This document shows positions 7,800 to 30,045 of a stretch of 64,000 bases of DNA, piece after piece (the stretch's first letter is position 1; each line of letters begins with the position of its first letter). The position numbers and the translations under genes were made by a program. The DNA is taken from assembly GCA_022511515.1 (NCBI GenBank), contig JAFLRP010000128.1:3851-67850 (forward strand), in the 5' to 3' direction. The stretch comes from Acutalibacter sp. Lineage in GTDB: Bacteria; Bacillota; Clostridia; Oscillospirales; Acutalibacteraceae. The notes below the pieces were generated by a model. It did no database searches. It saw nothing but the letters and a program-made list of their open reading frames with translations, and was not told the DNA's origin.

Positions 7800-8222
7800 A
7801 TGCTAACAACCACAGCGGACAAGCTGCGGTATTACCGCTATCAAAAATCCCTGCTCCAGCGGGAAGTGGCGGAATACGCAGGGATCAATGAAAGCACCTA
7901 TATCGACTATGAAAGCGGAAACAGGGACTATTATCCCATCGACAAAATCCGGCGGATCGCCGATCTGCTGGAAATTCCGACAGAGACACTTCTGGACGAG
8001 TACAATCTGTTCCTCTGTAATCAGACCAAAACGCTGAAAGCCCTGCGGGAGCAGTGCGGGTGGACACAAAGCCAGCTTGCCGAAAAACTTTCCATAAGAC
8101 TTCACACCGTCAAACAGTGGGAGCAGGGAAGGGTGAGAATGACAAGGAAAATGTGGGAAAGACTTCAAAACCTCATGCCATCCAAATCGGTACGATCAGG
8201 TTGTTGCTGTCAAAGGCACTGA
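7800..8222 (+). CDS. XRE-family protein with two helix-turn-helix modules (start uncertain; frame open back to the att core at 7563)
   Basis: The two HTH modules are LRYYRYQKSLLQREVAEYAGINESTYIDYESGNR and LKALREQCGWTQSQLAEKLSIRLHTVKQWEQGR. The first ATG is at 7800, but the frame has no stop from 7563 onward. Confidence 0.6.
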   Translation: MLTTTADKLRYYRYQKSLLQREVAEYAGINESTYIDYESGNRDYYPIDKIRRIADLLEIPTETLLDEYNLFLCNQTKTLKALREQCGWTQSQLAEKLSIRLHTVKQWEQGRVRMTRKMWERLQNLMPSKSVRSGCCCQRH

Positions 8223-9402
8223 GCTGTTCTGCCATACAGAGAACAGCGCCTGTGCCAAGCTGCAGAGGGGACTTGTCGATGACGCCGAAAACACGAGTCA
8301 GGCGTTTGTCGGGCGTGGCGGTTTTCTTAATTTCCAGAGGGCAGAGCTTCCCGTCGCTCTCTAAGATCACATCGATTTCCTTAGAATCACGATCACGATA
8401 GAAATAGAGGTACGGCTCCAGTCCTGCGTTCTGATAGCCTTTCATGATCTCCGATATGGCGAAATTCTCAAGCAGAGCGCCGCTCATGGCACCGCTTTCG
8501 GCTACTTCCGGGGAGGACCAGCGGGTCAGATAGCAAACCAGACCAGTGTCGTAAAAATACACTTTCGGAGTTTTGATCGTGCGCTTGAGGATATTGTTGG
8601 AGTAGGGGTGCAGCAGGAAGATGATCCCCAGCGTTTCCAGAATGTTGATCCATGCCTTTGAGGTTGAAATGTCGATATCTGCATCGTCGGCCAATGCTTT
8701 GTAGTTCAAAAGCTGGGAGCAGCGGGCGGCAACGGCAGTGACAAAGCGATTGAACTTCAGAGCGTCTACGCTGCCCGAAAGCTCCCGCACATCTCGCTCC
8801 ATGTAGGTGGAAAGATAGGACGAATAGAAGACATTTCGGTCATCGTACTGTCCGCTGATGAGACCCGGCATAGAACCTTTCCAAATTCGCCGAAACAGTT
8901 CTGGGGTGGTGACGGGTTGGATCTGATTTTTCTCCAAGAGAAGCTGATTTAGATCTGTTGTAAACGGCACACAGGGCGCACCGATAATCTCCCGCTGGGA
9001 CATGGGGGACATATGCAAAAGCGCAACACGACCTGCCAGAGATTCCTGCACGCCGCGCATGAGACGGAACATTTGCGAGCCGGTCAGCCAGAAATCACCG
9101 GGATTGTGATGCCGGTCAATGTGAATTTTGAGATAAGAGAACAGCTCAGGCGCATATTGAACCTCGTCAATGAGAACAGGCGGCTTGTGAAGCTGCAAGA
9201 ACAGGGCAGGGTCATTCTTTGCCATGTCCCGCTCTGCGAGGTCGTCCAGCGTCACATAGCTCCGTCCGATGTTTTCTTTCTCTGCCAGCTCCCGCAGCAT
9301 AGTCGTTTTTCCTGCCTGCCGAGGTCCGGTCAGCAGAATGGCAGAGTAGGATTTGCTCAATTCCAAGATGCGGTTTTCCATATGTCTGCGAATGTATTTC
9401 AT
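8173..9402 (-). CDS. AAA-family ATPase (AAA_14/DUF4143-type)
   Basis: MKYIRRHMENRILELSKSYSAILLTGPRQAGKTTML carries a Walker A motif and VLIDEVQ a Walker B motif. The architecture is common on mobile DNA. Confidence 0.8.
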   Translation of the reverse strand: MKYIRRHMENRILELSKSYSAILLTGPRQAGKTTMLRELAEKENIGRSYVTLDDLAERDMAKNDPALFLQLHKPPVLIDEVQYAPELFSYLKIHIDRHHNPGDFWLTGSQMFRLMRGVQESLAGRVALLHMSPMSQREIIGAPCVPFTTDLNQLLLEKNQIQPVTTPELFRRIWKGSMPGLISGQYDDRNVFYSSYLSTYMERDVRELSGSVDALKFNRFVTAVAARCSQLLNYKALADDADIDISTSKAWINILETLGIIFLLHPYSNNILKRTIKTPKVYFYDTGLVCYLTRWSSPEVAESGAMSGALLENFAISEIMKGYQNAGLEPYLYFYRDRDSKEIDVILESDGKLCPLEIKKTATPDKRLTRVFGVIDKSPLQLGTGAVLCMAEQLSAFDSNNLIVPIWMA

Positions 9403-9712
9403 AAAAGCACCACCTGTAAGATTATTTCGGCAATTTTTGGGTTTATTCATATTATAGCCGAAATGAGCTGTACAGTCAACAAAATTTCGGCAGATTTATG
9501 ATATAGACAAAAACCTGCCGAAATATCACTGATAAACTCTATTCTGTCAGGTAATGGGAGCAGGGAAGGATAAGGATAGCGAAGAAAATGTGGAAGAGAT
9601 TTCTGTGTAACGGTATAGACGAGAGATCGTTCTTGAGAGAAATACCTTGACATTTTTTTCGCGTCAACGATATTCTGATACTAATTGATCCTAATAATTA
9701 TCGGAGGACGGT

Positions 9713-10715
9713 ATGGACATTAAGAAATTCACGGAAATGCTTTGGGACGATAACTTTGCGAATTATTCGAGAATGGAATCTAAATACGAAGAAGTTTTTC
9801 GGACTTTTTGCAGACCTTAGAGGAACTGTATTATATTTCATTACCCCTTTTCGATTTTTGGGGTAAAAATGTTGTCTATCTTGAACCTCGCGGAGCGATC
9901 AGTCAGAGCTCTGTAAAACTGCTGCTGCAACTACAGAATCAGCGTTATGGCATCAAAGCGATTGAGGACGAAATTGTTGCAACCTTGGCGATTGATCACA
10001 TTAACGTCAACCGGGATAGTGTGCGCCGAATTCTCAAGGGAATGGCACCGAAGGACGAACAGGAGAATAGAATTGTCGGGCTCAAAAATGGGTTCGAGTT
10101 TATTGCCGATCCCGCTCACAAAATTACGGAAGAAAATCTGCATCGGCTCTATCTGATGACGGTGAATGATTTTCTGTCCGACGATTTGAAATGGGAGGAA
10201 GACTATCTATACGGACACAAAAAGTTTTACGTTGTCGGCGATCGCTAAAACCATCCCGGAGTGGACCCGGAAACCTTACAGGGGTTCATGAAGGTGCTAC
10301 TTGAGCTCATTCAGTGCGAGGACAAGATTAACGATCTTCTGAAAGCCTCGATTGTTCATTTTTATCTTCAATTTCTTCATCCGTATTTTAGCGGCAACGG
10401 AAGAATGGCTCGGCTGGTTCATCTGTGGTTTTTGATTCAAAAGGGGTATCAGTCAGCATTGTTTATTCTTTTTTCCAGTCAAATCGAAAAAGCCGCAAGG
10501 CATATTATGATGCTCTTGCGGCTGTGGAAGATAACAGGAAGTACAGTGGCAGAATCGATGTGACGCCGTTCCTACTGTATTTCATCGACAATGTTTACAA
10601 CAAGCTGAAGGAAGGTTCGACCCCGCTGGAAACCTTAATCGCATATGAAAAGGCCGTGAAAGATAGCAAGATCACAGGAAAGAAAACAAAGCTCTGGAAA
10701 TCTGTTTTGTCCTAA
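9713..10715 (+). pseudogene. Fic-domain (Fido) gene, decayed
   Basis: The Fic motif HPYFSGNGRMARL lies in the third fragment. The reading frame is broken by a shift near 9800-9810, an in-frame TAA at 10246 and a second shift between ~10440 and 10560, giving four fragments. GGAGGA precedes the ATG at 9713. Confidence 0.7.
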
Positions 10716-11526: not shown

Positions 11527-11555
11527 TTGAATTTATAAAACCTACAGGTTATAAT
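11527..11555 (+). promoter_or_regulatory. sigma-A-like promoter upstream of the AT-rich operon
   Basis: TTGAAT, a 17-nt spacer, then TATAAT. Such hexamers are frequent in AT-rich DNA, so support is weak. Confidence 0.3.
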
Positions 11556-11648: not shown

Positions 11649-11825
11649 ATGATCAGTCCGTCCCCTTGTTTTTCACAATGGTTTGAAGGCAATATACGGG
11701 TTCTTCCATGCGATGATAACTCTATTGAAAACCTTTTCTATAAAGATGTAACTAGATTTTTGTTTATTCAAAATAAAAAGTTGAATATGTATTTTTTTCA
11801 ACAAAAGGAGAGGTATGTGAAATGA
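11649..11825 (+). CDS. 58-aa small ORF, possibly translationally coupled (ATGA) to the first operon gene
   Basis: My own translation is MISPSPCFSQWFEGNIRVLPCDDNSIENLFYKDVTRFLFIQNKKLNMYFFQQKERYVK. It falls below the ORF-track length cut-off. It stays open for 58 codons in ~30% G+C DNA, and its stop overlaps the ATG at 11822. There is no good RBS. Confidence 0.2.
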   Translation: MISPSPCFSQWFEGNIRVLPCDDNSIENLFYKDVTRFLFIQNKKLNMYFFQQKERYVK

Positions 11826-12472
11826 ATGAAAAAGATATTATATCTTCTGAAACAACAAATATTGCACTGTCTGCGGCTAGCTCTTTGGTAGGTTTTGCAA
11901 TTGGCGGTCCTGTGGGGGCAGTTGTTGGAGGTATCATGACACCTACTGTGAAATTGACTCACCTATTGATTAGTTCATGGTATGAAAGGCGTCAAGCGCG
12001 GATTACAAGTGTTGTAGAAGAAGCATTTGCAAGCTCAGGAAGAGAAGAAGAAGATATACTTCAGGAACTGTTAGAAAAGCCAGAATGGGCAGATTCTGTT
12101 GTCTCTATTATTCAACAATTAGTTTATACCGATCCAGAATTAGATAAATTATTCGCTAAAATTCTGGCTTCAGCTATAAAAACGGATGATGATAATGAGA
12201 GAAATCGATTAATAGTGCTTAACAGTTCTATTAAAGGATTGAATAGTGTTCAAGTTCAGATTGTAAGATGTCTATTTGTAGAAAAAAATGGTACGCTATC
12301 TGCTACAGAAATTTCAAAAAAGGTTAATGTTCCAGAAATAGATTTGAGAAATGCGGTTAGGGACTTGGAGCTAAGAGGGATGATCATTGATAATAGAACG
12401 GAACCCACAGTCTGGAAGCTGAGGGAATTAGGGATCGCTGTAGCAAAAGCAATTGATGTTTTGGAGGTGTAA
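11822..12472 (+). CDS. glycine-zipper (GxxxGxxxGxxxG) protein with C-terminal winged-helix domain
   Basis: SLVGFAIGGPVGAVVGGIM forms a GxxxG ladder. The C-terminal LSATEISKKVNVPEIDLRNAVRDLELRGMIIDNR looks like a MarR/wHTH fold. The RBS is AGGAGAGG. Confidence 0.7.
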   Translation: MNEKDIISSETTNIALSAASSLVGFAIGGPVGAVVGGIMTPTVKLTHLLISSWYERRQARITSVVEEAFASSGREEEDILQELLEKPEWADSVVSIIQQLVYTDPELDKLFAKILASAIKTDDDNERNRLIVLNSSIKGLNSVQVQIVRCLFVEKNGTLSATEISKKVNVPEIDLRNAVRDLELRGMIIDNRTEPTVWKLRELGIAVAKAIDVLEV

Positions 12473-12474
12473 AA

Positions 12475-13617
12475 ATGGAGTATATGTATTTTAATAATGC
12501 AGGCGCAGGAATAATGAGTCCTGCAACCTATAAAACTGTGCTTGATCATATGGCCCTTGAAATGAAGATTGGCGGATATGCAGCCGCTAATGTTAAAAGT
12601 GATGAGGTGAATCAATTTTACTCACTTGCTGCTAATTTATTAAACGCCCGCTCAAAGGACGAAATAGCATTTATTGATAGTGCCAGTCGAGGTTGGAATC
12701 TGGTTATGTACGGGTTAAATATTTCTAAGGCTGATACGATTGTTACTTTAGCGAGTGAGTATGGAACCAATCTACTAACTATCTATGACATTGCAAACAA
12801 GACATGTTGTGGTGTTAAAATTGTTAAGTGTGATGATAAAGGAATCTTCAATCTCGAGGATGTTGAGCAAGCATTAATAAGTGGAGGTACTATTTTGGCT
12901 GTTAGTCATGTTGCAGCTCAAGGTTCTATTGTTAATCCAGTTATTGAACTTGGCGCGCTTGCTAAAAAATACAATGTAACATATATTGTGGATGGATGTC
13001 AGGCAGTAGGGCAGATAAGAGTAGATGTTCAGCAAATAAATTGTTGTGCGTATATTACTGCTGGTCGTAAATGGTTGAGAGGTCCCCGAGGTACTGGTAT
13101 TTTATATGTGAGAAAAGATGCACCGATTCATACCCCACAAATTGACTTGGCATCTGCAGATTTGGTTTTTGATGAATTAGGAGAGGTGATAGATGTTAAA
13201 ATTCGAGAAGATGCGAAACAATTTGAATTATGGGAAAAAAGCACGGCGTCTCTATTAGGCTTGAGGAACGCTATTCAAGAGTATTTAGACTTTGGCATTG
13301 AAAATGCAGAGAAAGAAATATATGAAAAGGCTAATTATATTAGGAAATCTATCGTTAACAATCCTAATCTTTCATTAGTGGGAAGTGAGGTTTCTTCTTC
13401 TGGAGTGGTCGGATTTTATGTAAAAAACCCCCAGAGCGAAAACCTTGTTAAAGAAAGACTTGAAAAGCACAACTTTATTATTTCCTACATTTGCGATTGG
13501 GATTGCCCTATTTTCTTTCCCAAAAATGGAATTCATTATGTCTTCCGAATTTCGCCCCATTATTATACTAGTAAAGAGGAAATCCAAGCCATTTGTCAAT
13601 TAATTCAGGAATTATAA
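12475..13617 (+). CDS. class V aminotransferase-fold PLP-dependent enzyme (cysteine desulfurase/epimerase-like)
   Basis: FNNAGAGIMS, VSHVAAQGSIVNPV and IVDGCQAVGQIRVDV are present. AGRKWLRGPRGTGILYV is the PLP-lysine loop pattern. The RBS is GGAGGTG. Confidence 0.8.
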   Translation: MEYMYFNNAGAGIMSPATYKTVLDHMALEMKIGGYAAANVKSDEVNQFYSLAANLLNARSKDEIAFIDSASRGWNLVMYGLNISKADTIVTLASEYGTNLLTIYDIANKTCCGVKIVKCDDKGIFNLEDVEQALISGGTILAVSHVAAQGSIVNPVIELGALAKKYNVTYIVDGCQAVGQIRVDVQQINCCAYITAGRKWLRGPRGTGILYVRKDAPIHTPQIDLASADLVFDELGEVIDVKIREDAKQFELWEKSTASLLGLRNAIQEYLDFGIENAEKEIYEKANYIRKSIVNNPNLSLVGSEVSSSGVVGFYVKNPQSENLVKERLEKHNFIISYICDWDCPIFFPKNGIHYVFRISPHYYTSKEEIQAICQLIQEL

Positions 13618-13651: not shown

Positions 13652-14698
13652 ATGAACAATTATCAGACAATACTAAGTAGGAATTTGCCACAGTACGCCG
13701 AAAATGAACAGGTTTGTATTACAGGAGTTATTTGTAAAAAATGGGGAAGCAAAAATCATTTTGGCATATCTGTTAAGGATATAACCGGGACTGTTAGTAT
13801 AAGTTTTTTCAATAGTACAAAAGGTTATTCTAAGGAGTTATTTGCTATCGGAAACCGAATACGGATATATGCTAGTGTTTGCATTGATCGCAGAGGTTCT
13901 AAATGTCTTGGTAATGTTGATAACGTGGAATTTCTTGAGGAAATCAGTCAGTTCAATAAAGAATTTGATATTCTTGAACAGGAATCACTCGTAATGCTGA
14001 GCATAATTAGCAATAAGATATGTGCACAATTAGTTAATCTTGGTTATATTGAAGTAAGTACGCGTGTTATATCAAGATTTTTAGGAGAAGAATTACTGGA
14101 GCCCCTTTTTGCAGAGTACCCCGGCTTTGGTACTCCAGCATACTTATCTCCTTCACCCTCATCTCAATTGTCGGAATTTTTAGCTGTCACATTATTACCA
14201 AAAGTGTTTACCGAAACAATTTCTTTTACTACAAGTCATCGTTTTCCGAATGGCTCAACTGAAATGCCAATTATTATGGCAAAAGCTATTAACATGCACA
14301 AGGCCGAAGAAAAAAATGCTGTTCTTCGCATTTCAAAAAGTATCGTTAACTCATTGTCAGATAAGACATTTCAAGTAGATACCATCTTTGGCAATTGGGA
14401 CGATGTATCACCGTTGAACCAAAATCGTACTAATGGCACTTTTACATACGGTATATATTCGTCCAATATTCCAACCGTTGGTCGCAAATGGAATTCCGTG
14501 GTTTGTACCATTTACAGATTTGAGGATGATAAAGGGAATTTATTAGTAGAAGGTTCAACTGAAGCAATAAATGATACTACAAGTATCACTACCTTTACAT
14601 TCTATCCTTCGCAATTTTTGAATTGGATATCAAAGGCACCGAAACGCCAGCTACTCAACTTGTGGAAGATGTATGACGGAGGAAGTATATATGGCTGA
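13652..14698 (+). CDS. class IIb aminoacyl-tRNA synthetase paralogue (Asp/Asn/Lys-RS-like), apparently catalytically degenerate
   Basis: It shows an N-terminal OB-fold pattern VCITGVICKKWGSKNHFGISVKDITGTVSISFF. Motif-1-like LGYIEVSTRVIS and YLSPSPSSQL are present. Motif 2 is replaced by SFTTSHR, and the protein ends at ...DGGSIYG, where motif 3 should lie. It is only 348 aa. Confidence 0.6.
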   Translation: MNNYQTILSRNLPQYAENEQVCITGVICKKWGSKNHFGISVKDITGTVSISFFNSTKGYSKELFAIGNRIRIYASVCIDRRGSKCLGNVDNVEFLEEISQFNKEFDILEQESLVMLSIISNKICAQLVNLGYIEVSTRVISRFLGEELLEPLFAEYPGFGTPAYLSPSPSSQLSEFLAVTLLPKVFTETISFTTSHRFPNGSTEMPIIMAKAINMHKAEEKNAVLRISKSIVNSLSDKTFQVDTIFGNWDDVSPLNQNRTNGTFTYGIYSSNIPTVGRKWNSVVCTIYRFEDDKGNLLVEGSTEAINDTTSITTFTFYPSQFLNWISKAPKRQLLNLWKMYDGGSIYG

Positions 14699-16577
14699 TA
14701 ATTATAGCATTGTAGAGCCGTTAGGTAATCAAGATCGAGACACCAAACTTGAACGATATTGGAAGAGTTTTGAAGGCAAATATGGACTTAGAACATCACG
14801 TATAATTCAATTTGATCCTTACGCTTCAATGTCAAGATCTCCAGTTCAGTATAAACTGGAGAAGTTCAATCTAAATAGGGATATCCCCAGTCAAGAATGG
14901 ATTAGAGACAATTTGAAACAGTTTATTCGAGAAGAGATAATGGTGTCTGCTTCCGAGATACCTCAATATTTTTCTCCCGAAATAGATGGCGAAATAATTC
15001 TTCCAGACGAATATCTTACTGATTTTTTGCATAATAGTGAATGGGATAATTTTTTGAAAGTTGAGCTGCCAAAAGATGATACTGATTCAGAGATGGCTAA
15101 TTGCATTTATAGACTCTTATGCAATCCTCAAATAGGGTCATCGAAAAATGCAGTCAATAACGACGAATCAGAATTTATTAACCACATTCTTCCCTTGATT
15201 GAGCAAAGAAAGCGTCTTCTATTTGTATTACCGGGTTTTCCATTTAAGGACCAGAACAAGTTTCGGGTTCCTTATGATGCGGCTCGCATTGATTTTAGCG
15301 AAATATCTTTCATAATACGTTTGCATAATCTCATTCAATCCTTATATCAAGTTCATCCATTTGGAGCGGAAGCGATCGTACTTTCTGATGGTCGCTTATA
15401 TCAGGATATCTTCTATATAGATCCCATAGAAGTAGAAGAGTACCAATGGAGATTACATGACTATAGAAATAAGCTGAACATTCAGGGGGATGTTTCCATT
15501 ATCGACTTGATGGATTTAATAGAGCGAGCAAATGAAGATGGAGAGATAACAAAATTGATCCAACATCTGGAAACTGTTATTTCAAATGATTATGCGCAAG
15601 AAGATTTTTTTCTTAATCTTATTCAGGGCATGAAATGGAACTTGAATTCAAGAAAGCTTCTCAAAGATTATGATGACATTGATTCATGGAATATAATTAA
15701 GAGTAATCGCTGTGATGTTAGAAGGGATTTGCTTAAAATTTGGAATGATTATCATAATATTGCAAAAGAAGCCGCAGTAAGATATGCGGCTGTTAATCTA
15801 ATGTTGAAGTGGACTGACTTGATTCGGAAATTTTTTCCTGAATCTATTAGGTGTACTGTCCATGCAAAAAAGAATCAATTTGCATTAGCAAAGAGTTACG
15901 CTTGGAATGGTATTGCATGGTCAGAAAGGTGGCCAAAGACATTGAGGGATATTACTACAGTACCATTTTACATGTTAGGAAAGTATGTTAAAGTTAAACT
16001 TGCAACGTTTCAAAGCACGAAGTTTCCTTGCTTTTTTACAACAGAGCGGTATAATCAAAATTTAGATTATGCGAAAAACATTCTTGAAGCAGATGGGTGG
16101 AATGTAGACAATATTTTTGGAAGAGAATTTAACATTTTTGATTTAGCGGAATTTGTTGAACTTGGTAGAGATGATGAAAATTTTGCATGGGAAAAGAAAG
16201 AAATGTCTGAAGAGTACTATAAAGCGCTACTTCAATTCCGCATTGGCCATTATAAAAAGTACGGTTTCGGTGTACATGCTATATTTATGGATGGTAATCT
16301 TATAGGCCAGATGGGATTACAGGTATTAGATGAGCAGAAAAACCAGATAGAATATGTAATCTTTCTCGGAAAAGATTATGTGCATAAGGGAATTGGCTCT
16401 AAACTATTGAAATATTTATTTTCTAGGTGCAAGGAAGAAGGTCTTACGACTGTGTTTGGCGTGATTCGTAGTGATAACGATATTTCAAGACACATTGTGG
16501 AGAAATTCGGAGGGAAAATGGTTAGGACAATGGCTCATTATCATCAATCTGGAGTTTTATATGAGATCGAACTATGA
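14691..16577 (+). CDS. DIT1/PvcA-family (isonitrile synthase / N-formyl-tyrosine family) domain fused to a C-terminal GNAT acetyltransferase
   Basis: LLFVLPGFPFKDQNKF...LYQVHPFGAEAIVLSDGRLYQDIF...EVEEYQ aligns by eye with PvcA IHFVLPAFPAKSPN...YAPGARLTICSDGRVFSD. FPESIRCTVHAKKNQ matches FP..LRLSIHPQ. The GNAT motif A is YVHKGIGSKLL. The start at 14691 has GGAGG 7 nt upstream and overlaps the previous stop by 8 nt. Confidence 0.7.
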   Translation: MADNYSIVEPLGNQDRDTKLERYWKSFEGKYGLRTSRIIQFDPYASMSRSPVQYKLEKFNLNRDIPSQEWIRDNLKQFIREEIMVSASEIPQYFSPEIDGEIILPDEYLTDFLHNSEWDNFLKVELPKDDTDSEMANCIYRLLCNPQIGSSKNAVNNDESEFINHILPLIEQRKRLLFVLPGFPFKDQNKFRVPYDAARIDFSEISFIIRLHNLIQSLYQVHPFGAEAIVLSDGRLYQDIFYIDPIEVEEYQWRLHDYRNKLNIQGDVSIIDLMDLIERANEDGEITKLIQHLETVISNDYAQEDFFLNLIQGMKWNLNSRKLLKDYDDIDSWNIIKSNRCDVRRDLLKIWNDYHNIAKEAAVRYAAVNLMLKWTDLIRKFFPESIRCTVHAKKNQFALAKSYAWNGIAWSERWPKTLRDITTVPFYMLGKYVKVKLATFQSTKFPCFFTTERYNQNLDYAKNILEADGWNVDNIFGREFNIFDLAEFVELGRDDENFAWEKKEMSEEYYKALLQFRIGHYKKYGFGVHAIFMDGNLIGQMGLQVLDEQKNQIEYVIFLGKDYVHKGIGSKLLKYLFSRCKEEGLTTVFGVIRSDNDISRHIVEKFGGKMVRTMAHYHQSGVLYEIEL

Positions 16578-16589
16578 AAGGAGCATATA

Positions 16590-17009
16590 ATGCCTGTTTG
16601 CTATATAACATTATCAGAAATCAAACCAGAACTAACTAACGAAGAAATTCAATGTATAAGAAAAATAGTAGCAAAGGGATTGGATTCGACTTCCAAAAAA
16701 CTTGATGAGACACATATTGTTACACGTACGCATTATTCAAGTCGAGAATCTATGCTAGGTGATATCGAGATTGATATTTTTTCGCAATTATATTTAAGGC
16801 GACTATTCTCAAGAGATAAACGAGCAAACTATATTTCAAAGCAAATTTCGGAATTTTTAGGATGTTGCTGCGCAACTTGGATAAATATGGAGATTGTTGG
16901 TTATTCAAGGGTTGCACTCGACGGTAATGTTTTCTATTCGGACTCCGATAATTTTTTCGTTCGTCTTTTTCAAAGGGTTAGAGGTGTATCTACACACAAG
17001 AACAAGTAG
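16590..17009 (+). CDS. 139-aa protein; possible tautomerase-superfamily member (N-terminal Pro1, two beta-alpha-beta units)
   Basis: MPVCYITLSEIKPELTNEEIQCIRKIVAKGL resembles the 4-OT-type MPxxxIxL...helix pattern. The RBS is AAAGGAG. The functional call is weak. Confidence 0.55.
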   Translation: MPVCYITLSEIKPELTNEEIQCIRKIVAKGLDSTSKKLDETHIVTRTHYSSRESMLGDIEIDIFSQLYLRRLFSRDKRANYISKQISEFLGCCCATWINMEIVGYSRVALDGNVFYSDSDNFFVRLFQRVRGVSTHKNK

Positions 17010-17353
17010 TGAAATTGCATGTCTGGAGATATCTTTCTTTGTGCGCAGTTTTTCTGCATCAACTTATATAAGTCATCTTAATGTTCTAAACTACGAAAAG
17101 TGCTTTTGCTTATCTGCAATAAGAAAAAATGATCCTATGTCTCGGTTTACCAAAAGCGAAGTCCTTCTATTCCTTCTTAAGAATTGCGCAATTCAGATCA
17201 TTTCCCCTATTATTTCTTTGAACAGTATCTATATGAAGATCAATTATTGGAAAAGTCAATGCGTACAATTTATCTGTTCTTTTTGAACCATTTTCTTCAC
17301 CGCTGGTTAGGCCAATTATTTACGTGATGTTAAGTCCTTTCCAAAAACTATAC

Positions 17354-17375
17354 AGGTGGTAGTACACTACCACCT
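17354..17375. repeat. perfect 22-bp palindrome AGGTGGTAGTACACTACCACCT
   Basis: I read it directly from the sequence. It lies in the non-coding tract between the AT-rich operon and the tyrosine integrase. Confidence 0.6.
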
Positions 17376-17558
17376 AGCAAAACTTTGATATACTGTCTTT
17401 GTTGTCTATGTCCATTCTGACCAAGGCAGAGCACCTATTCCGGGTATCATTTCTTACTTTGTCACCCATCGGCTGAGGTTTCTGTTTTTTCCAGAGCGTT
17501 ATACTCTCACACTTTCCTGTTTCGTGCCATTAGCCAGTCACAGAAAATGGTCATTTAC

Positions 17559-17977: not shown

Positions 17978-18919
17978 TTACGCATCGTGCGAATCCCCCT
18001 TTTCTACTCCGGCCAGATAAATGCGCGTCACATCCAATCGCTCGTGCCCCAGCCACTTGGAAACCTGAAGGCGAGCGTGATTGTCGCTGAAACCCTGCCG
18101 AATCAGAGATTTGTACCACTCCGCCGCACAGGTATGCCTGAGACCGTGAAAGGTCAGCGGACTTGTAGAGTCGGGATCTCGAATCTCCTCCCGATGTACT
18201 GAAATGAAATTCTGCAACTCTCGGATGGCAATGTGGGTATCCTTGCCCTCTGGAACAAAAAGTTTCTGCCCCTGCGGGGTATGGTGCAGAGCGTTTTTCA
18301 GTGTCGTCTTGACCTTTTTGTTGATCGGAATCTCCCGGACTTTTCCGCCTTTTCCTTTGACGGTGATAATCCCGGAGCGCAAAGCCAACCGCGCCGCTGC
18401 GGTGTCGAGCCTCATGCACTCGTGAATTCGCAGCCCGGCGTACCGTGCCATTTTGGCGCAGCCGAGATACTCGTAGTGCTTTCTTTCCTGGCATAAGTCC
18501 AGTAGCTTGACAAATTCCGTCTCACTCCATGTACGGTTCACGCCCCCAAAGCTACGGCGCTCTAACTGGAATTCGTCGTTGCCCGGCACTTCATACCGGG
18601 CGCCTGGGATTTTGTCGTGCCAAAAACGGATCGCTGCCAAATCGGTCTTGATCGTGCTCGCAGCCAGTCCCTTTTCTTGCATTTGGGCGATGTATGCGGA
18701 AAGGTGTCTGCCGGAGAGATTGGAGAGCTTTTGCACTCCGTAGTTTTCTCCGACAAATTTCAGAAAGCGGCAGTAAGCTTCAAAGTACCGCTCCTTTGTC
18801 TTGAAGCTGCCCTGACGGTTGTGCCGGAACAGCTTCTTGGCTTGCTCATAAAGCGTCTGATATCTGTTGCTGATAAAGGTACCTCCTTTTTGATTATGGC
18901 GCACTTTCCCCAGTGACAC
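17978..18919 (-). CDS. tyrosine-type site-specific recombinase/integrase
   Basis: ARYAGLRIHECMRL (Arg I), HGLRHTCAAEW (H-x-x-R) and LGHERLDVTRIYL (His, Tyr nucleophile) are present. Confidence 0.88.
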   Translation of the reverse strand: MSLGKVRHNQKGGTFISNRYQTLYEQAKKLFRHNRQGSFKTKERYFEAYCRFLKFVGENYGVQKLSNLSGRHLSAYIAQMQEKGLAASTIKTDLAAIRFWHDKIPGARYEVPGNDEFQLERRSFGGVNRTWSETEFVKLLDLCQERKHYEYLGCAKMARYAGLRIHECMRLDTAAARLALRSGIITVKGKGGKVREIPINKKVKTTLKNALHHTPQGQKLFVPEGKDTHIAIRELQNFISVHREEIRDPDSTSPLTFHGLRHTCAAEWYKSLIRQGFSDNHARLQVSKWLGHERLDVTRIYLAGVEKGDSHDA

Positions 18920-24719: not shown

Positions 24720-25775
24720 TTACAGTGGCCCCTTGTTATGCTTTCGCATGGCAAAAATAACAATAACCGCGGTGTAAAGCAGGACGACACTGAGTGGCAA
24801 AAATAAGGGAATGCCGTTTCCCAGCCAGAGCAGCAGTTTGCTCCCGCAGAGCAGTCCGCTGTGGGTGAAGGACAGGAACGGGGCGTTCCACAGCATGGGA
24901 ACGACTAAGACGCACAACCCGAGGAAAATCATATTGGAGACATTTTTGCCCCAAACGGAACAGCCGAACACCAAGGCGGCAAACAGCAGAGCGGCGGCGC
25001 TGCGATGGAGCAAGCTGAACAGGTATCCCTGCAAAAGGGAAACATCCAAAGTACATTCTGTCATGGCGCTGACAGAATAGATGGGGACATGGGGATCGTT
25101 CAGCCAGCCCCGTAGGGAAAACACGGCAAGTTCCAGTCCGCCGAAAATCAGAGCGGCCATGAGACTTGTCAGCAGCAGGGCAAAGAGCTTTGCCCTGAAA
25201 AGCCGCCCTCTCCCGTTTCTTGCAGACAGCAGTACGGGAAGCATTCCGGCAGAAACTTCCATAGAAAAGCACTGGGCACTGAGCAATAATAAACCGGCGA
25301 TCAGGAAAATATCCGGGAATTGCTGGAGCGTGAAAACCGTCTGCCAGCCGTATTCGTAACTGTAATGAGCGGGGGGCAATTCCGAGGATTGTTCCGAAAA
25401 CTGATCTGCTTTTTCATAGAAAATTTCCGTGGCGTTTTTGTGGAGATAGGCGAGGCTTAATTTCTCCATATAGGCAGACCATTCCTCCTCGGCCAATTCG
25501 CCCCGCCGGTACTGATCTTCCATAAATTCCTGGTTGTTGATGACCGCCTTGCAGTTTTCGTATTCCGCTGTGATCCACGCCGTTTTCTCCGGCGTGTTTT
25601 CCCCTTGAAGCTCCGCAAGGTACTTGTCGTACTGCTTTTGGGAAAGGGCGATTCGGGAATCCTTTATCTCCGGAAAACAGTCCAGAAACAATGCTTTTAG
25701 AAGTAGACACACCAGCAGAATGAGAAGTCCCTTTTGGGTAAGAAGTAGTTTCTTTAATTCGGAACGAAACAGCAT
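24720..25775 (-). CDS. ABC-2-type transporter permease-like membrane protein
   Basis: It has an N-terminal TM, a ~130-aa extracytoplasmic loop and five or more further TMs. It overlaps the upstream permease gene and follows an ABC ATPase gene. Confidence 0.6.
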   Translation of the reverse strand: MLFRSELKKLLLTQKGLLILLVCLLLKALFLDCFPEIKDSRIALSQKQYDKYLAELQGENTPEKTAWITAEYENCKAVINNQEFMEDQYRRGELAEEEWSAYMEKLSLAYLHKNATEIFYEKADQFSEQSSELPPAHYSYEYGWQTVFTLQQFPDIFLIAGLLLLSAQCFSMEVSAGMLPVLLSARNGRGRLFRAKLFALLLTSLMAALIFGGLELAVFSLRGWLNDPHVPIYSVSAMTECTLDVSLLQGYLFSLLHRSAAALLFAALVFGCSVWGKNVSNMIFLGLCVLVVPMLWNAPFLSFTHSGLLCGSKLLLWLGNGIPLFLPLSVVLLYTAVIVIFAMRKHNKGPL

Positions 25776-27025
25776 TATACCACCCGGTCTTTCCGATGGT
25801 ACACCTTAGTTGTAACAATTGCCATTGCCACTGCAAAGATGCTCCATACCAGCGCCAGCACCACAACCCATGGTACGGAAAAGCCGAAAATGTTCGCGTC
25901 ATAGTACCGCTCAAAAAACCGCAGAGGAGAAGATAGTACCAGCGGACCAGCCAGCCATTCCGTTCTCGGTGGAAAGTAGACCGGCAAAAGGAAAAGACCC
26001 AGCAGGAGCGCACCGATACCACAAGAAATGAAACTAGGGCGGCTGAAAGCCGAAACAGACGTTAAGATGGTAGAGAAAAGCATTGCCGTGAAAATCTGAC
26101 AGCAAATGGACAGTAGGAAATATTGCCAAACTTGTATTGAATACGGACACAGAATCAATTGCTCAATCGCTGTCACGGGTTGATCGAATCCTAAAGTACC
26201 CCCCTTAAAATAATATGCGAGTATCGAGAAGACTTGAAGAATCACAGTCAGCACCATGCCAATGAGCCAACCGGAAATGTACTTTGCCAGCAGAGTTTTT
26301 CCCTTACCGTACTTTGCGGTATGTAACAGTAACCAAGTGCGGCGATCATGTTCTCCTGCTACACTTCTGGAAGCAGTCAACAATAGTAGCAGGAATACCA
26401 GCAACATGGCGGGAGATTCAAAAAACAAATCTCCGCCATAACGAATGTAAGTAGTAATTGCTTGTCGGGGAATCGAGTATAGCTGCTCAATACTCTCATT
26501 TTTGCGGACGCCATAGATGTCTTTTTCTAACTCCGCCTCTTGTCGAAAAGATTCAGCCGATTTTAGAACGTTAGATATTTTCTGGTTTGCGGAAGAGTTG
26601 ATTTTTTCTAACATTTCAATATTGGTGAGATACTCATAGTCACTTAGATTGGCAAGCACCCCTGGAACCTGGCGTATTGCATCTGATTCCAGAAAGGTAT
26701 AGTCACTTAACACTGTTTCTCCGTATTTCTCTTTGAGAGCGGCTACGGCTTCAGCATGTTCTTCTTCTGACATAAATTCTATAGAGGCGGATACCTCGCT
26801 CATAATACGGGTAACATTACGTTCTCCGCCCACATATTCAAAAAAAGTTTCAATGTGAGTAGGAGCCTCGTCGCCGACAGAGCGCATGGCATACAAATAT
26901 CCCTGATATTCCGCAATTCCACATTGAGTCAGGAAATTCACTAAAATCGCAACACAGAATACCAGCAGAAAAAATCGGCTTCTCACGGCCTTCTTTAACT
27001 CAAAACAAACTAGAGTTCCCATCAT
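25775..27025 (-). CDS. ABC-2-type transporter permease-like membrane protein with large external loop
   Basis: It has the same topology as the neighbouring permease. It overlaps the ATPase gene by 4 nt. Confidence 0.6.
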   Translation of the reverse strand: MMGTLVCFELKKAVRSRFFLLVFCVAILVNFLTQCGIAEYQGYLYAMRSVGDEAPTHIETFFEYVGGERNVTRIMSEVSASIEFMSEEEHAEAVAALKEKYGETVLSDYTFLESDAIRQVPGVLANLSDYEYLTNIEMLEKINSSANQKISNVLKSAESFRQEAELEKDIYGVRKNESIEQLYSIPRQAITTYIRYGGDLFFESPAMLLVFLLLLLTASRSVAGEHDRRTWLLLHTAKYGKGKTLLAKYISGWLIGMVLTVILQVFSILAYYFKGGTLGFDQPVTAIEQLILCPYSIQVWQYFLLSICCQIFTAMLFSTILTSVSAFSRPSFISCGIGALLLGLFLLPVYFPPRTEWLAGPLVLSSPLRFFERYYDANIFGFSVPWVVVLALVWSIFAVAMAIVTTKVYHRKDRVV

Positions 27026-27912
27026 ACCGCCGCCTCCTTTGAGGTCTCTCGGAAATGGTAGAGGTACAAATCTTCCAGATTGGGTTGGACGGGTACGCCA
27101 AGGGGACAGGAATCCCCCACAATTCGTAGTAGGACTTGTTCTCCCTGACTCTGCACATTGCCCACTAGAGCCTTAGCCTGCCAAGCGGTGACCTCCTTGG
27201 GCGCAACTGCAAGGGAAAATACCTTTCCCACCATGCTTTCCCGCAACGCTTGCGGTGTATCCCGGGCAATGAGCTTTCCCGCCCGCAGCATCAGAATGTC
27301 CTTGGCGATAAATTCAATGTCCGAGACAATGTGGGTGGTCCAGATCACGATTTTGTCCAGCGCCACCGTGGCGATAGTGTTTCTGAGCCGTACCCGCTCC
27401 TGGGGGTCCAGCCCTGCGGTGGGTTCGTCCAAAATCAGGAGCTTCGGGTCGTTTAAGAGGGCTTGGGCAATGCCCAATCTTTGGCGCATGCCGCCGGAAA
27501 ATTCCCCGATCTTCCGCCGTGCGTCCCCTTGGAGGTTTACCGTTTCCAGCAACCGGTCCACGGTAATTCCCAGTTCCTTCTTGCTCAGCTTCATGCCCTT
27601 TACCGCCGCCATATAGCAAAGAAATTCGTCCGCCCGGAAAGATTTGTACAGGGAGGGCGTCTGGGGCTGAAAGCCTAAGATATCCCGAAATCTCCAGTCA
27701 AGAACGGAAATGTCCTCTCCGTCCCATAACACTCTGCCACCAGTGGGTCGCAAAATGCCCGCAATGATATTCACCAGCGTGGTTTTCCCCGCGCCGTTTG
27801 GTCCAAGTAATCCGTGTACGCCCTCGTTTAGGGAGAAAGATACCGTATTAAGCGCCTTACAATTCCGATAGTCCTTTGTGATTTTCTCTACAGAAAGTTC
27901 CATATATAACAT
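27022..27912 (-). CDS. ABC transporter ATP-binding protein
   Basis: Walker A GPNGAGKTT, the signature FSGGMRQR and Walker B LLILDEPTAGLD are present. Confidence 0.9.
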   Translation of the reverse strand: MLYMELSVEKITKDYRNCKALNTVSFSLNEGVHGLLGPNGAGKTTLVNIIAGILRPTGGRVLWDGEDISVLDWRFRDILGFQPQTPSLYKSFRADEFLCYMAAVKGMKLSKKELGITVDRLLETVNLQGDARRKIGEFSGGMRQRLGIAQALLNDPKLLILDEPTAGLDPQERVRLRNTIATVALDKIVIWTTHIVSDIEFIAKDILMLRAGKLIARDTPQALRESMVGKVFSLAVAPKEVTAWQAKALVGNVQSQGEQVLLRIVGDSCPLGVPVQPNLEDLYLYHFRETSKEAAV

Positions 27913-28958
27913 TATCCTTTCCCATCATTCTTGATAAGCTGTATTTTTGCAGAAGCCATTGTATCAGGGGAAATGTTTTCCAGATCAAGCGGAACTGAAA
28001 CAGTATAAAAACTAACACTCTTTGCAGCTTCTAAATCAATCTGAATCGGCAACTGTAGCATTTCTTCCTCTTTTGACACCCAATCGCAATAACGGTAAAC
28101 ATTGCCGTTATATGTAAATGGTGTAAGAACCCCGTCTAGGAGGAGAATAGTCCGATACATTCCGGGTTTCGATGCAACAGCTTCAAAAAGGAAAGAATGA
28201 TTATTATTTATAAGTAATTCTCTTGACCCAATAGAATCGTTTTCTAATACGACATAATTATCTTCCCACAGCCAAGCGTTATAAGCTCCATCTGTATACA
28301 AGCCCTGAAGACCATTTCTTTGCACAACTGTCCCACATAAAGGGTCTGGTACAAGTGGAGTCTTTTCACTTTCATTCTGTATAATTTTTACTGTGTAGCT
28401 GGTCATGTGATAGTCAGACAGAGGGTCCTCATCGTAAAACAATAGAAAATCTAATCTCCCTATGTTTTCACAAAATTCAGGTTCCATTTTAACATCTAAT
28501 TCAGTTTGTTGGTTCGATAGCAAAAGCGGATATTTTGTATAACTGTCGCCATCTATGTCAAAAGCGGTAGGGATTCCATCTGCCAGTATAATCATGTAAT
28601 AGGCCTGTGATTGGTTCAGCCCATTTTGAATAACGACTCTTGCGTTTACTTCCCTACCGTTAATTTTGTATGTATCGCTCTGCAAGTTTTCGGAAGACCA
28701 TTGCTGTTCGTATTCTGAAAGGCTAACCCATATCCCTGCCATCCATTGTACCGCCGGATTTTGAGCTAATTTTCCCATGCCATCTGGCATTCTAAGACCA
28801 CTTTCAGATTCTGAATCATTATTTTTTCCTTCGGTTAGAAAATCCTTGGAAGATGTGACCGAAATTCTTGAAATCGCATTTGTACCTATCGCAATTATTG
28901 CAAAAGAAATGATGAAAACAAAGGTCCAAATCAATATGCTTTCTATTGCTCTTTTCAT
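27912..28958 (-). CDS. membrane-anchored extracytoplasmic protein, unknown function
   Basis: It has a single N-terminal TM (ILIWTFVFIISFAIIAIG). The rest is hydrophilic and beta-rich. It sits in an operon with the ABC genes. Confidence 0.55.
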   Translation of the reverse strand: MKRAIESILIWTFVFIISFAIIAIGTNAISRISVTSSKDFLTEGKNNDSESESGLRMPDGMGKLAQNPAVQWMAGIWVSLSEYEQQWSSENLQSDTYKINGREVNARVVIQNGLNQSQAYYMIILADGIPTAFDIDGDSYTKYPLLLSNQQTELDVKMEPEFCENIGRLDFLLFYDEDPLSDYHMTSYTVKIIQNESEKTPLVPDPLCGTVVQRNGLQGLYTDGAYNAWLWEDNYVVLENDSIGSRELLINNNHSFLFEAVASKPGMYRTILLLDGVLTPFTYNGNVYRYCDWVSKEEEMLQLPIQIDLEAAKSVSFYTVSVPLDLENISPDTMASAKIQLIKNDGKG

Positions 28959-28962
28959 AATG

Positions 28963-30045
28963 TCAATACCCTAACAAATCCACTCTTGATCCGGTCTTGG
29001 AAACATAATAAACAGCGTTTTCTGTATTGTTTTCCTCACTTATGCTTATGACAATCATTTCGTCTGCGTCGGGTTCAAGCATATAAATTTGATATACAGG
29101 AACCGGAAATTCCACAAGTTTCTCTATTTTGGTCGGATCATCTTTTGGGAATCGATAAATGTCATGGCTGTCCGCATTTGTCATATTGTTGTCCGTATAG
29201 TATCGGAAATAGAAATAATCTTTGTCAAAATTCCAACTTGCAACTAAAACAGGTCGATCTGTGATCTGTTCAGGATTGCTTCCGTCCATCTGACAACGAT
29301 ACAACAAGCCGTCGCCGTATTTTGCATAATAAAGATACTTTCCATCTGTTATATAATCCGCATTCTCGATAAGCGTTTCAGGTTCAGCTCCTTCCTCTGA
29401 TAAGTTTAGCCTATGTATGCCTCCATATTGGTAGTATAAATAATCGTCACAGATTGCCTCCCAATAGCCGGTATACTCCTCAATCAGAGTTCGGGAATTC
29501 TGTTGATTACCATCCTCAAAGACCACGAGCGAAGAATCCGTTGTTGCTACAAAAAGATCGTCTCTGCCGTGGAAAAAGTGGGAAACTCCGCCATTGATTA
29601 GGGGTTCAAAGCGTCCATCGTTCAACTTCATGACCCGACCTGCCTTCTGCTCGCTTTTTCCATATACCTCCCCATTAAAGAACTCCAAATTTGATTCTAC
29701 CCTTCCTGCTATGCAAGTATCTGATACGTGGTCACAAGTGGCATCCTTACAAAAATTTGTCACAGTATTCGTTGCCATATCATAACTTAACAGGTCTATA
29801 CGCCCCTGCTCTTGATTAGTTTTCGTGAAAATGAGTTTTCCGTCTACAGTAACGAAGTTGCCGGAAGGAACATTTTTTTGCATATTTCCGTTTTGAATAT
29901 CTAGATTATGGTGTTTAGCAATAGTTTCGTTATTTGTAGCAGAAAAGTCTTCCGAACTAGCGGATGGTTCTTTACTTGTTGTAGAACACGCCGTCATCAT
30001 ACCAATAATCACAAAGATAATTAGTGCACTCCATGTCTTTTTCAC
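28963..30045 (-). CDS. lipoprotein, beta-propeller-like (DUF5050-like repeats)
   Basis: The signal peptide carries the lipobox MMTAC. Repeated YLYY/YFYF-type blades occur (KYLYYAKYGDGLLYRCQMDGSNPEQI). Confidence 0.6.
   Translation of the reverse strand: MKKTWSALIIFVIIGMMTACSTTSKEPSASSEDFSATNNETIAKHHNLDIQNGNMQKNVPSGNFVTVDGKLIFTKTNQEQGRIDLLSYDMATNTVTNFCKDATCDHVSDTCIAGRVESNLEFFNGEVYGKSEQKAGRVMKLNDGRFEPLINGGVSHFFHGRDDLFVATTDSSLVVFEDGNQQNSRTLIEEYTGYWEAICDDYLYYQYGGIHRLNLSEEGAEPETLIENADYITDGKYLYYAKYGDGLLYRCQMDGSNPEQITDRPVLVASWNFDKDYFYFRYYTDNNMTNADSHDIYRFPKDDPTKIEKLVEFPVPVYQIYMLEPDADEMIVISISEENNTENAVYYVSKTGSRVDLLGY

Follow-up and report, generated by a model that had tools for sequence, protein, structure and literature searches.

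To our knowledge, isonitrile synthases occur only as stand-alone enzymes or as fungal multidomain proteins that act on free tyrosine or tryptophan and are followed by an oxygenase, and every characterised PvcA, IsnA or Dit1 enzyme uses a free amino acid. Yeast Dit1, which forms N-formyl-tyrosine for the spore wall, belongs to the same Pfam family as the protein we describe here. So do the fungal multi-domain isocyanide synthases (ICSs), such as the ICS-dioxygenase XanB and the ICS-NRPS-like CrmA (PMC5974471, bioRxiv 10.1101/2023.04.17.537281), in which the ICS domain is followed, in one and the same protein, by a tailoring domain. The fungal fusion partners are TauD-type dioxygenases or NRPS-like modules, whereas the partner in our protein is a GNAT, and no aminoacyl-tRNA synthetase (aaRS)-like, SufS-like or tautomerase partners have been described for the fungal fusions. 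Our literature search found no paper describing an ICS-GNAT fusion, nor any on the PIsnA structures 9dhm and 9dh4.

Such a fusion is encoded by gene D (14691..16577, + strand) of an Acutalibacter sp. contig, in a window (the whole stretch of DNA that was analysed) of 64,000 nucleotides. The protein has 628 residues when read from 14691, or 634 if the start lies at 14673. From sequence and a structure model, we read it as a three-part enzyme that joins a novel N-terminal domain (14694..15086, +; residues ~8-138 in the 634-aa numbering), a complete PvcA/IsnA (DIT1_PvcA) fold (15087..16043, +; residues 139-457), and a RimL/RimJ/MccE-type N-acetyltransferase with its acetyl-CoA motif (16074..16574, +; residues 468-634). 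Both catalytic domains keep their family motifs intact, and the full-length model, linker included, has a pLDDT of 94.6. The preliminary description had proposed a covalent fusion of an isonitrile-synthase-family domain with a GNAT behind an extension of no recognised family, and this proposal holds: Pfam profile, fold and motif matches were obtained for both halves, and the conserved alpha/beta N-terminal domain has no Pfam, NCBIfam or PDB-profile match and lies outside every listed fold match of the full-length model. That domain is confidently modelled and is present in fused and GNAT-less homologues alike. The family is conserved and comprises at least 150 clusters, more than 100 of which, independent and from many samples, share an uninterrupted fused architecture of 628-652 aa. 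The preliminary description had also allowed that the likeness to PvcA might find no profile support, or that the fusion might be widespread and already assigned; the profile match is significant, as detailed below, and the family is rare, unnamed and without an assigned function.

Against PF05141 (DIT1_PvcA), D scores 76.8 bits over residues 175-401 (gathering cut-off 26.4; E 2.6e-21), and its structure model contains the PvcA/IsnA three-dimensional fold. The family motifs FPxK..N, PDxAE, SDG..DIF, FPxAIRxS/TxH and WxGVA align to PIsnA and to an annotated family member from B. thuringiensis (hhalign probability 99.5%, E 1.8e-22), with K192, N195, D207, D239, G240, R393 and T395 conserved in at least 90% of 92 homologues. 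The NCBIfam equivalog for PvcA (NF045653) gave 42.1 bits, against a cut-off of 600. These scores make D a member of the DIT1_PvcA family and not an orthologue of PvcA. Compared with PvcA, IsnA and PIsnA (PDB 3e59, 9dhm, 9dh4), to which it is about 20% identical, D adds the N-terminal domain of ~130 aa and the C-terminal GNAT and, unlike the canonical enzymes, invariably comes with an aaRS-like protein. It also has invariant residues of its own (D193, Q194, R198, Y243, Y257, R265, N323, Y371, N375, K399 and Q402), suggesting a substrate other than that of PvcA or IsnA; the constancy of the aaRS-like partner likewise makes a shift away from plain tyrosine or tryptophan likely. As the preliminary description had remarked, D lacks an oxygenase partner: neither an Fe(II)/2-oxoglutarate oxygenase (PvcB/IsnB) nor a P450 (Dit2) is found among the four conserved neighbours, and the 25 families most often seen in the flanks include no oxygenase.

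In the C-terminal part of D, the Acetyltransf_3 (RimJ/RimL branch) profile, the GNAT fold and the acetyl-CoA motif Q/R-x-x-G-x-G/A were all found. The score against the rimI equivalog is 27.3 bits (cut-off 86.4), below the level of a RimI, RimJ or RimL equivalog. Among the structures closest to it are MccE, the enzyme of microcin C immunity, and acetyltransferases of the phosphinothricin/arsinothricin type. Identity to RimL and to the C-terminal domain of MccE is only 15-18%, with scores below every NCBIfam equivalog cut-off, and unlike those enzymes the D GNAT is fused to, or encoded beside, a PvcA-like enzyme. It is plausible that the two halves of D channel a single substrate, or else offer two alternative N-modifications.

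Searching for homologues of the fusion and recording their genomic contexts, as the preliminary description had recommended, brought out a recurring five-gene cassette, A to E, of which the fusion gene is the core and which has so far gone unstudied. A single-sequence query of genome contigs returned nothing; an alignment-based query found the cassette loci. A-B-C-D-E recur in the same order in about 40 loci, taking in L001-L009 and about 25 metagenome loci, and D never occurs alone. Hosts include Firmicutes, Actinobacteria (Acidimicrobiia, Leucobacter), Ignavibacteria, Armatimonadota (Fimbriimonas) and a Thermoplasmatales archaeon. The cassette is 5.2 kb long, with 2 nt between A and B, 34 nt between B and C, an 8-nt overlap of C and D, and 12 nt between D and E. 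The ATG of D at 14691 overlaps the last codons and TGA stop (14696-14698) of C, and its Shine-Dalgarno sequence, GGAGGAAG (14678..14685, +), lies within the 3' end of C; the overlap suggests that C and D are translationally coupled, as in nearly all loci. In L009/L030, L031 and L032/33, D is split into a DIT1 gene and a GNAT gene, the stop codon of one overlapping the start codon of the next. Because the two halves occur elsewhere as separate, coupled genes of the same cassette, the fusion points to a real functional link. The C-D pair is kept even in distant loci that are GNAT-less or differently organised (L010, L036, L037, L042 and L044). One of these, L042, is a variant cassette in which a Dabb barrel replaces E and a PIG-L de-N-acetylase is added beside a separate GNAT, by analogy a pattern of N-acetyl protection followed by deprotection.

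Gene C (13652..14698, +; 348 aa) is a candidate class IIb pseudo-synthetase in which an OB domain is kept and the core is shortened. Over the OB domain and the region of motif 1 it matches an archaeal-type AspRS (1wyd, E 1.8e-7), and it aligns with the AspRS of its own host (hhalign probability 95%, E 6e-9); a Kribbella homologue matches Pfam tRNA_anti-codon (E 2e-10). Both features expected of class IIb are thus present, an OB domain at the N-terminus and a class II core homologous to theirs. In alignments to the host AspRS and AsnRS, the F-R-x-E of motif 2 is replaced by F-T-x-S/T. For motif 3 (G-x-G-x-G-x-x-R), we find no conserved counterpart of the arginine in a C-terminal alignment of low confidence, and hhalign of C against single AsnRS or LysRS sequences is unreliable in that half, so that we are less sure of the loss of motif 3 than of the loss of motif 2. 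Having lost the Arg and Glu of motif 2 and apparently the Arg of motif 3, C probably does not function as a synthetase. Its family has 97 clusters, of which only one is named, by JGI, as 'Truncated, possibly inactive, lysyl-tRNA synthetase', an old EpmA-type COG name. C resembles AsnA, EpmA/PoxA and the archaeal AsnRS-like asparagine synthetase in being a short AspRS/AsnRS/LysRS-like protein in what would be a non-translational role. Those paralogues keep their catalytic motifs and are not known to have an OB domain; C is their opposite, with the OB domain kept and the catalytic residues lost. Protein-atlas look-ups gave leads below a reliable score.

The roles of A, B and E are suggested by family resemblance. 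Gene A (11822..12472, +; 216 aa), the first gene in nearly all complete cassettes, has an N-terminal glycine zipper that is invariant in the alignment (G24, G28, G29, G32, G36 and P41), a helical middle and a C-terminal winged helix, with weak matches to TrmB (E 4.5e-5) and Abi_alpha (E 4.6e-4), both under the Pfam cut-offs. Gene B (12475..13617, +; 380 aa) encodes a SufS-like class V PLP enzyme (Aminotran_5, E 1.7e-43) whose best PDB matches are cysteine desulfurases (E 7.7e-27); its matches to SufS/EgtE-type NCBIfam models fall far below the equivalog cut-offs (SufS subfamily, 119.6 bits against 475). Its PLP lysine, K199 (GRKW), is invariant, as is Cys344 (DWDC344P), which in a pairwise alignment stands two residues from the position of the SufS catalytic Cys. 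Gene E (16590..17009, +; 139 aa, with a conserved core of about 118 aa) encodes a Pro1 tautomerase-superfamily protein, from a family confined to the cassette. Sequence-profile searches of PDB and Pfam, the Pfam tautomerase families included, gave no match, and its fold was revealed by structure only: the model has the beta-alpha-beta fold with an N-terminal proline of the catalytic type. Like the cis-CaaD/Cg10062/MIF branch, E has two beta-alpha-beta units and an N-terminal proline aligned to Pro1; its invariant Arg71, Arg75 and Tyr105 lie near what we take to be the positions of Arg70, Arg73 and Tyr103 of cis-CaaD.

The cassette is horizontally mobile among distant bacteria and archaea, usually amid anti-phage defence genes. 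Its G+C content is 36%, against 55% for the chromosome. Of 17 other loci that were compared, 13 have a cassette poorer in G+C than its flanks. Searches of 24 genomes of the same genus and 16 of the same order did not find it. A tyrosine recombinase with XerC/XerD-type matches adjoins it here (17978..18919, - strand) and is not conserved with the cassette in other loci. Across loci, the flanks hold LmuB, DrmMI/type IIG RM, Hma, Uzume, PDC-S02, reverse transcriptases, AbiEii-like ATPases, GmrSD, a STAND NTPase and recombinases, and 121 flanking proteins matched 171 PADLOC families, against one family from a small, crude control of 33 proteins. Within the cassette, C, D and E have no match in PADLOC-DB 2.0.0 (2023), A has only weak wHTH matches and B only generic DndA/SspA ones. 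This setting suggests a role in conflict, and it is from neighbourhood association only that a defence role may be proposed. A phage or plasmid origin is not supported, with no fusion homologue in phage genomes, IMG/VR viral contigs or plasmids; the plasmid searches returned only canonical isonitrile synthases (~23% identity) on two Bacillus plasmids and two Embleya replicons.

What might such an assembly do? We tentatively favour a reading that falls somewhat short of probable, in which the cassette produces a small molecule derived from an amino acid, an isonitrile or N-formyl compound, for use in conflict or defence, and the GNAT serves as a protective N-acetylase. The SufS-like B and the tautomerase E would make or reshape a non-standard amino acid, which the degenerate AspRS-like C would bind or present to D, probably by docking on the N-terminal domain of D. 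The PvcA-like domain would then turn the alpha-amino group into an isonitrile (or an N-formyl group after hydration), with a sugar phosphate as carbon donor as in PvcA and IsnA, and the GNAT would acetylate the same amine on an unconverted or toxic intermediate as a protecting or self-immunity step. MccE offers a precedent, since it confers immunity by N-acetylating processed microcin C. The product might act in chemical anti-phage defence or against competitors; given that recombinases accompany the cassette and defence genes surround it, such a use seems most likely to us. A could be a regulator or a membrane-acting partner. B, E and the Dabb and PIG-L proteins of L042 all fit a small-molecule pathway. 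The cassette has no exporter and its flanks no conserved transporter, which would be unusual for a secreted metabolite, and the OB nucleic-acid-binding domain of C is not obviously needed in a purely small-molecule pathway.

We also entertain, as a somewhat unlikely possibility, a new anti-phage or inter-microbial conflict system in which an aminoacyl substrate presented by the pseudo-synthetase is capped by an isonitrile, N-formyl or N-acetyl group, with a new isonitrile antimetabolite, produced on demand, or N-blocked aminoacyl-tRNA as the outcome. If so, isonitrile-synthase chemistry would for the first time be linked to immunity, and an OB-bearing, catalytically dead class IIb synthetase paralogue would have its first known function. 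More broadly, the joining of an isonitrile-synthase fold to a putative alpha-amine acetyltransferase, in the company of an apparently dead AspRS/AsnRS look-alike, a PLP enzyme and a Pro1 tautomerase, on a mobile cassette shared by distant bacteria and archaea and mostly found amid defence genes, makes this a good candidate for new amino-group chemistry in microbial conflict. Were that chemistry borne out, isonitrile biosynthesis would have a wider range of substrates and of biological roles, and a new pseudo-synthetase family would have a function. A small-molecule or tRNA-directed mechanism might also be added to those of prokaryotic immunity. Being only 5.2 kb long and self-contained, the cassette is directly testable by heterologous expression.

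The main rival to a small-molecule product, which we consider unlikely, is an abortive-infection-type toxin that caps aminoacyl-tRNA: C would hold charged tRNA through its OB domain and remnant class II core, and D would block the aminoacyl alpha-amine by acetylation, by isonitrile or formyl formation, or by both, so that EF-Tu rejects the tRNA and translation stops. The class IIb architecture of C, its coupling to D, the extra conserved N-terminal domain of D, which could dock on C, and the defence-island setting all suit such a scheme, as does the match of the GNAT fold to MccE. RimL- and MccE-type GNATs act on alpha-amino groups of aminoacyl moieties, and TacT, AtaT and ItaT, which block the aminoacyl alpha-amine from mobile elements, are a possible analogy. 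These are two-gene toxin-antitoxin pairs with RHH antitoxins, however; none is among the best 50 structural matches of the D GNAT, a result still compatible with relatedness, and the cassette has no RHH-type antitoxin. In AspRS structures, a Phe and a Gln of the class IIb OB domain contact U35 in reading the anticodon, and, by eye, neither is conserved in the C-family alignment or the alignment to 1wyd. Capping of tRNA would also leave the SufS-like enzyme, the tautomerase and the Dabb and PIG-L proteins of the variant cassette without a role, and it departs from the free amino acid used by the characterised enzymes. Nor does a tRNA gene travel with the cassette; the sole case, tRNA-Thr and tRNA-Tyr beside L006, is probably an integration site.

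The cassette could instead belong to ordinary accessory secondary metabolism, for example making a stress metabolite, or an isonitrile that binds metal in the manner of a chalkophore or siderophore, its place in defence islands reflecting merely the gathering of mobile cargo at the same integration hot spots. The bacterial isonitriles paerucumarin, rhabduscin and SF2768 do have parts in the handling of metals or in virulence (PMC3639982, PMC7949033). Small-molecule enzymes accompany D too, and the defence neighbourhood is associative, measured against a small control set. We nevertheless think this decidedly unlikely: neither the cassette nor the recurring flanking genes include a transporter, a receptor or a gene regulated by metal; the cassette is scattered very patchily, strain by strain, and in most hosts has a G+C content under that of its flanks; and PADLOC matches in the flanks are far above those of ordinary genes.

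A nucleic-acid modification module like Dnd/Ssp phosphorothioation, with B giving sulfur, the OB protein C binding DNA or RNA, and D and E tailoring a base or tRNA nucleoside, seems very improbable. B keeps a loop cysteine and, over its N-terminal half only, matches the models for DndA and SspA (E ~1e-24), an OB fold is present in C, and restriction-modification and other defence genes lie nearby; but those matches are generic to all class V desulfurases, SufS scores better, and DndC/D/E, SspB/C/D and nuclease or ATPase partners are absent from the cassette. We know of no PvcA-family or tautomerase enzyme that acts on nucleic acids. Finally, that the D fusion is a frameshift, assembly error or chance ORF in AT-rich DNA might be argued from the lineages in which its halves are separate genes, but is effectively refuted by the cluster count, the alignment and the structure model, the split forms showing clean overlapping stop and start codons, not breaks.

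The non-coding DNA on both sides of the cassette is not conserved across loci. We rejected as a gene a 58-codon ORF upstream of A (11649-11825), which is conserved in no locus and lacks its own ribosome-binding site. In an AT-rich region that gives 37 sigma-70-like promoter matches where 25 are expected, the best one upstream of the cassette is, as a consensus match only, TTGAAT-17-TATAAT (11527..11555, +; 10 of 12 positions).

The fusion gene, D, lies in a 634-codon frame at 14673-16577 (+) in the ORF list of the window, and residue numbers here follow that reading. The preliminary description placed its start at ATG 14691, which is indeed the likely start, since a Shine-Dalgarno sequence (GGAGGAAG) lies 5 nt 5' of it and most homologues, at 628 aa, begin with the equivalent methionine; the ATG sits among the final codons of gene C, which lies upstream. 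The PvcA-like core and C-terminal GNAT proposed there are both borne out. Pfam places DIT1_PvcA (PF05141) on residues 175-401 (E 2.6e-21, 76.8 bits against a cut-off of 26.4) and two GNAT families, Acetyltransf_1 and Acetyltransf_3, on residues 484-614. An AlphaFold2 model built from an alignment of 92 sequences (mean pLDDT 94.6, pTM 0.83) is matched in Foldseek by PIsnA (9dhm, 9dh4) and PvcA (3e59) at E ~1e-12, and profile-profile comparison with an isonitrile-synthase-family protein annotated on a Bacillus thuringiensis plasmid (probability 99.5%, E 1.8e-22) finds the motifs FPFKxxN, PDxAE, DGxxYxDIF, FPxAIRxTVHxKxxQ and WxGVA intact in D. By profile, fold and motifs, then, D belongs to the DIT1_PvcA family. 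G573 and G575, the glycines of its acetyl-CoA motif, are invariant in the homologue alignment, and with both motif sets intact the two catalytic domains look functional. D is nevertheless not an orthologue of PvcA: its match to the NCBIfam PvcA equivalog reaches 42 bits against a threshold of 600, and the canonical oxygenase partner is missing, none being present in the cassette, as had been noted. Its GNAT falls in the RimJ/RimL branch yet lies outside the ribosomal-protein acetyltransferases, and the match to the RimI equivalog is likewise sub-threshold. The N-terminal extension described as lacking a recognised family keeps that status; residues ~8-138 form an alpha/beta domain, modelled confidently within full-length D, that no Pfam, NCBIfam or PDB-sequence profile spans and that none of the Foldseek matches listed covers.

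A search of 5.8 billion proteins finds 151 clusters of the D family, mostly metagenomic, nearly all sharing one architecture at 628-652 aa and carrying only automatic names such as 'Dit1/RimJ/RimL'. An exhaustive search of 50%-identity representatives gave 113 proteins at E <= 1e-30 to D. This shared architecture, the homologue alignment and the full-length model exclude an artefactual fusion. GNAT-less proteins of ~460 aa match residues ~10-457 (N-terminal domain plus PvcA fold) and stand-alone GNATs of ~175 aa match residues ~460-634. In Leucobacter, as in some other loci of high G+C, D is split into a PvcA-like and a GNAT gene whose stop and start codons overlap. Fused and split forms are equivalent, and their occurrence inside the same cassette argues that the two activities work together. 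On the B. thuringiensis plasmid pLM1 (L048:3635-4873), a 412-aa annotated isonitrile-synthase-family protein has its own ~120-residue N-terminal extension. Its neighbours are just IS elements and a HAD-like fragment; lacking an oxygenase, it is another orphan family member.

D is an obligate member of a five-gene cassette. We collected 43 loci by scanning metagenome contigs and a single genome for each species, and read their gene content by tblastn with the window genes neighbouring D; at every locus with a long enough contig all five genes, A to E, are present in unchanged order. Hosts include Firmicutes (Catenibacillus, Eubacterium, Oscillospiraceae), Ignavibacteria, Acidimicrobiia, Leucobacter, Fimbriimonas and a Thermoplasmatales archaeon. 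A (11822-12472, +) combines an invariant glycine zipper with a helical region and, at its C-terminus, a winged helix. B (12475-13617, +) is a class V PLP enzyme nearest SufS-type cysteine desulfurases, in which the PLP lysine and the cysteine of DWDCP, close to the SufS catalytic cysteine, are invariant; it scores far under every NCBIfam equivalog cut-off. C (13652-14698, +) is an AspRS/AsnRS/LysRS-like protein, and E (16590-17009, +) a tautomerase-superfamily protein. The gaps between genes measure 2 nt (A-B), 34 nt (B-C) and 12 nt (D-E), and C and D overlap by 8 nt. At 97 and 205 clusters, the families of C and E are about as large as that of D and their members are otherwise unnamed, so both appear specific to the cassette. 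No gene outside A-E is consistently linked to it in the flanks of the loci. A 58-codon ORF upstream of A was rejected as a gene, not being conserved. Between E and the integrase, a palindrome at 17353-17376 (10-bp, GC-containing stem, then a T-run on the minus strand) may be a terminator for the convergent genes; its sequence is not conserved in other loci.

C matches a PDB profile at E 1.8e-7 and the host's own AspRS with a probability of 95% (hhalign). Aligned to the host AspRS and AsnRS, it has F-T-x-S/T in place of the motif 2 F-R-x-E and, where the C-terminal alignment is weak, no conserved arginine at motif 3. Class IIb enzymes touch the anticodon through a Phe and a Gln, as in AspRS structures; by eye, in the alignment of C homologues and the PDB profile alignment, C does not conserve the matching positions. 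C thus has the look of a pseudo-enzyme for binding a ligand rather than of an adenylating enzyme. Its most conserved part is the segment between motifs 1 and 2 (YPGFG...SPxxQ). The most distant relatives (Kribbella L010 and loci L036, L037, L042 and L044) retain only a C-like/D-like pair, which is therefore the ancestral core. In Kribbella, Pfam tRNA_anti-codon recognises the protein upstream of the D-like one. At L042 (13-9964) a variant cassette adjoining an RHS-repeat protein encodes a C-like protein and a 460-aa D without the GNAT, plus a Dabb barrel, a free-standing GNAT, a PIG-L de-N-acetylase and a PLP enzyme resembling B. At L044, C and D are accompanied by a separate Acetyltransf_3 GNAT, and a serine recombinase lies next to them. 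The N-terminal domain of D occurs exactly where C occurs and has no counterpart in PvcA, which makes it the obvious candidate for contact with C.

The cassette resides in defence islands, and its tie to defence is one of neighbourhood. The flanks of about 25 loci supply 121 non-redundant proteins, which at E <= 1e-10 match 171 PADLOC models, including LmuB, DrmMI/type IIG RM, HmaB/C, UzuA, PDC-S02, mad3, reverse transcriptases and PtuA; 33 ordinary window genes match 1, a large contrast, though the control is small and the metric crude. Searched against Pfam, the flanks also yield serine recombinases, integrases, AbiEii-type ATPases, MvaI/BcnI, GmrSD, HEPN-DUF499 and a 1559-aa STAND-like NTPase. 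C, D and E are matched by no PADLOC model.

We tentatively suggest, with somewhat less than even confidence, that the cassette makes an amino-acid-derived small molecule for defence or antagonism, with the GNAT protective. B and E would make or reshape a non-standard amino acid and C would hold it; the PvcA-like domain would, most likely, turn its alpha-amine into an isonitrile or formamide, and the GNAT of D would supply protective N-acetylation. Given the cassette's neighbourhood, the product would probably serve defence or antagonism. To our knowledge, all characterised PvcA/IsnA/Dit1 enzymes use a free amino acid. Structurally, the GNAT of D is closest to MccE, RimL and phosphinothricin/arsinothricin acetyltransferases, which acetylate alpha-amines of aminoacyl compounds or toxic amino acids. 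The acetylase/deacetylase pair of L042 suggests protect-and-release chemistry, a logic that its de-N-acetylase fits. The main rival is that C presents aminoacyl-tRNA whose amine D caps, like GNAT toxins; this would account for the OB domain kept in C, but leaves unexplained B and E, as well as L042's Dabb and PIG-L enzymes, all from families acting on small molecules, and we consider it unlikely. Ordinary metal-binding secondary metabolism strikes us as quite unlikely, and a Dnd-like nucleic-acid modification as very improbable. We found no literature on an isonitrile-synthase/GNAT fusion, nor on one with an aaRS-like protein, desulfurase-like enzyme or tautomerase; D is an enzyme of known kind, set in a system without described counterpart.

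The cassette is horizontally mobile. Its G+C in the window is 36%, compared with 46% in the remainder of the element and 55% in the chromosome, and is below that of the flanks in 13 of 17 other loci examined. The fusion was not found in the 24 same-genus and 16 same-order genomes searched, and is absent from the phage genomes, viral contigs and plasmids searched. In the window, an XRE-type gene and a serine recombinase delimit the mobile element that contains the cassette; neighbouring the cassette there are a tyrosine integrase, a split Fic gene, an AAA_14/DUF4143 ATPase and a methylase/helicase-nuclease pair. The ATPase (8173-9450, -; E 1.7e-47), within the element, belongs to a family common on mobile DNA. 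The Fic/DOC-family gene (9808-10715, +), immediately 5' of the cassette, seems to be broken into three overlapping ORFs (9808-10248, 10261-10563 and 10425-10715), of which the middle one matches Pfam Fic at E 5.4e-9 and carries the motif HPYFSGNGRMAR; frameshifting has probably made the gene a pseudogene. A five-gene operon at 24720-30045 (-), encoding an ABC ATPase, an ABC-2 permease, a DUF5050 protein and two family-less proteins, shares the element but is unlinked to the cassette in other loci. In an Oscillospiraceae locus (L006:3987-4152), tRNA-Thr(TGT) and tRNA-Tyr(GTA) lie ~860 bp upstream of A; since 19 other loci examined have no tRNA gene, these probably mark an island integration site and are not a functional partner. 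Finally, two loci look like decayed copies: in one (L029:7001-8192) only E and the C-terminal 256 residues of D survive, with unrelated genes upstream, and in the other (L046:4189-8892) all five genes are broken into many short fragments, so the cassette is apparently not just gained but also lost through decay.
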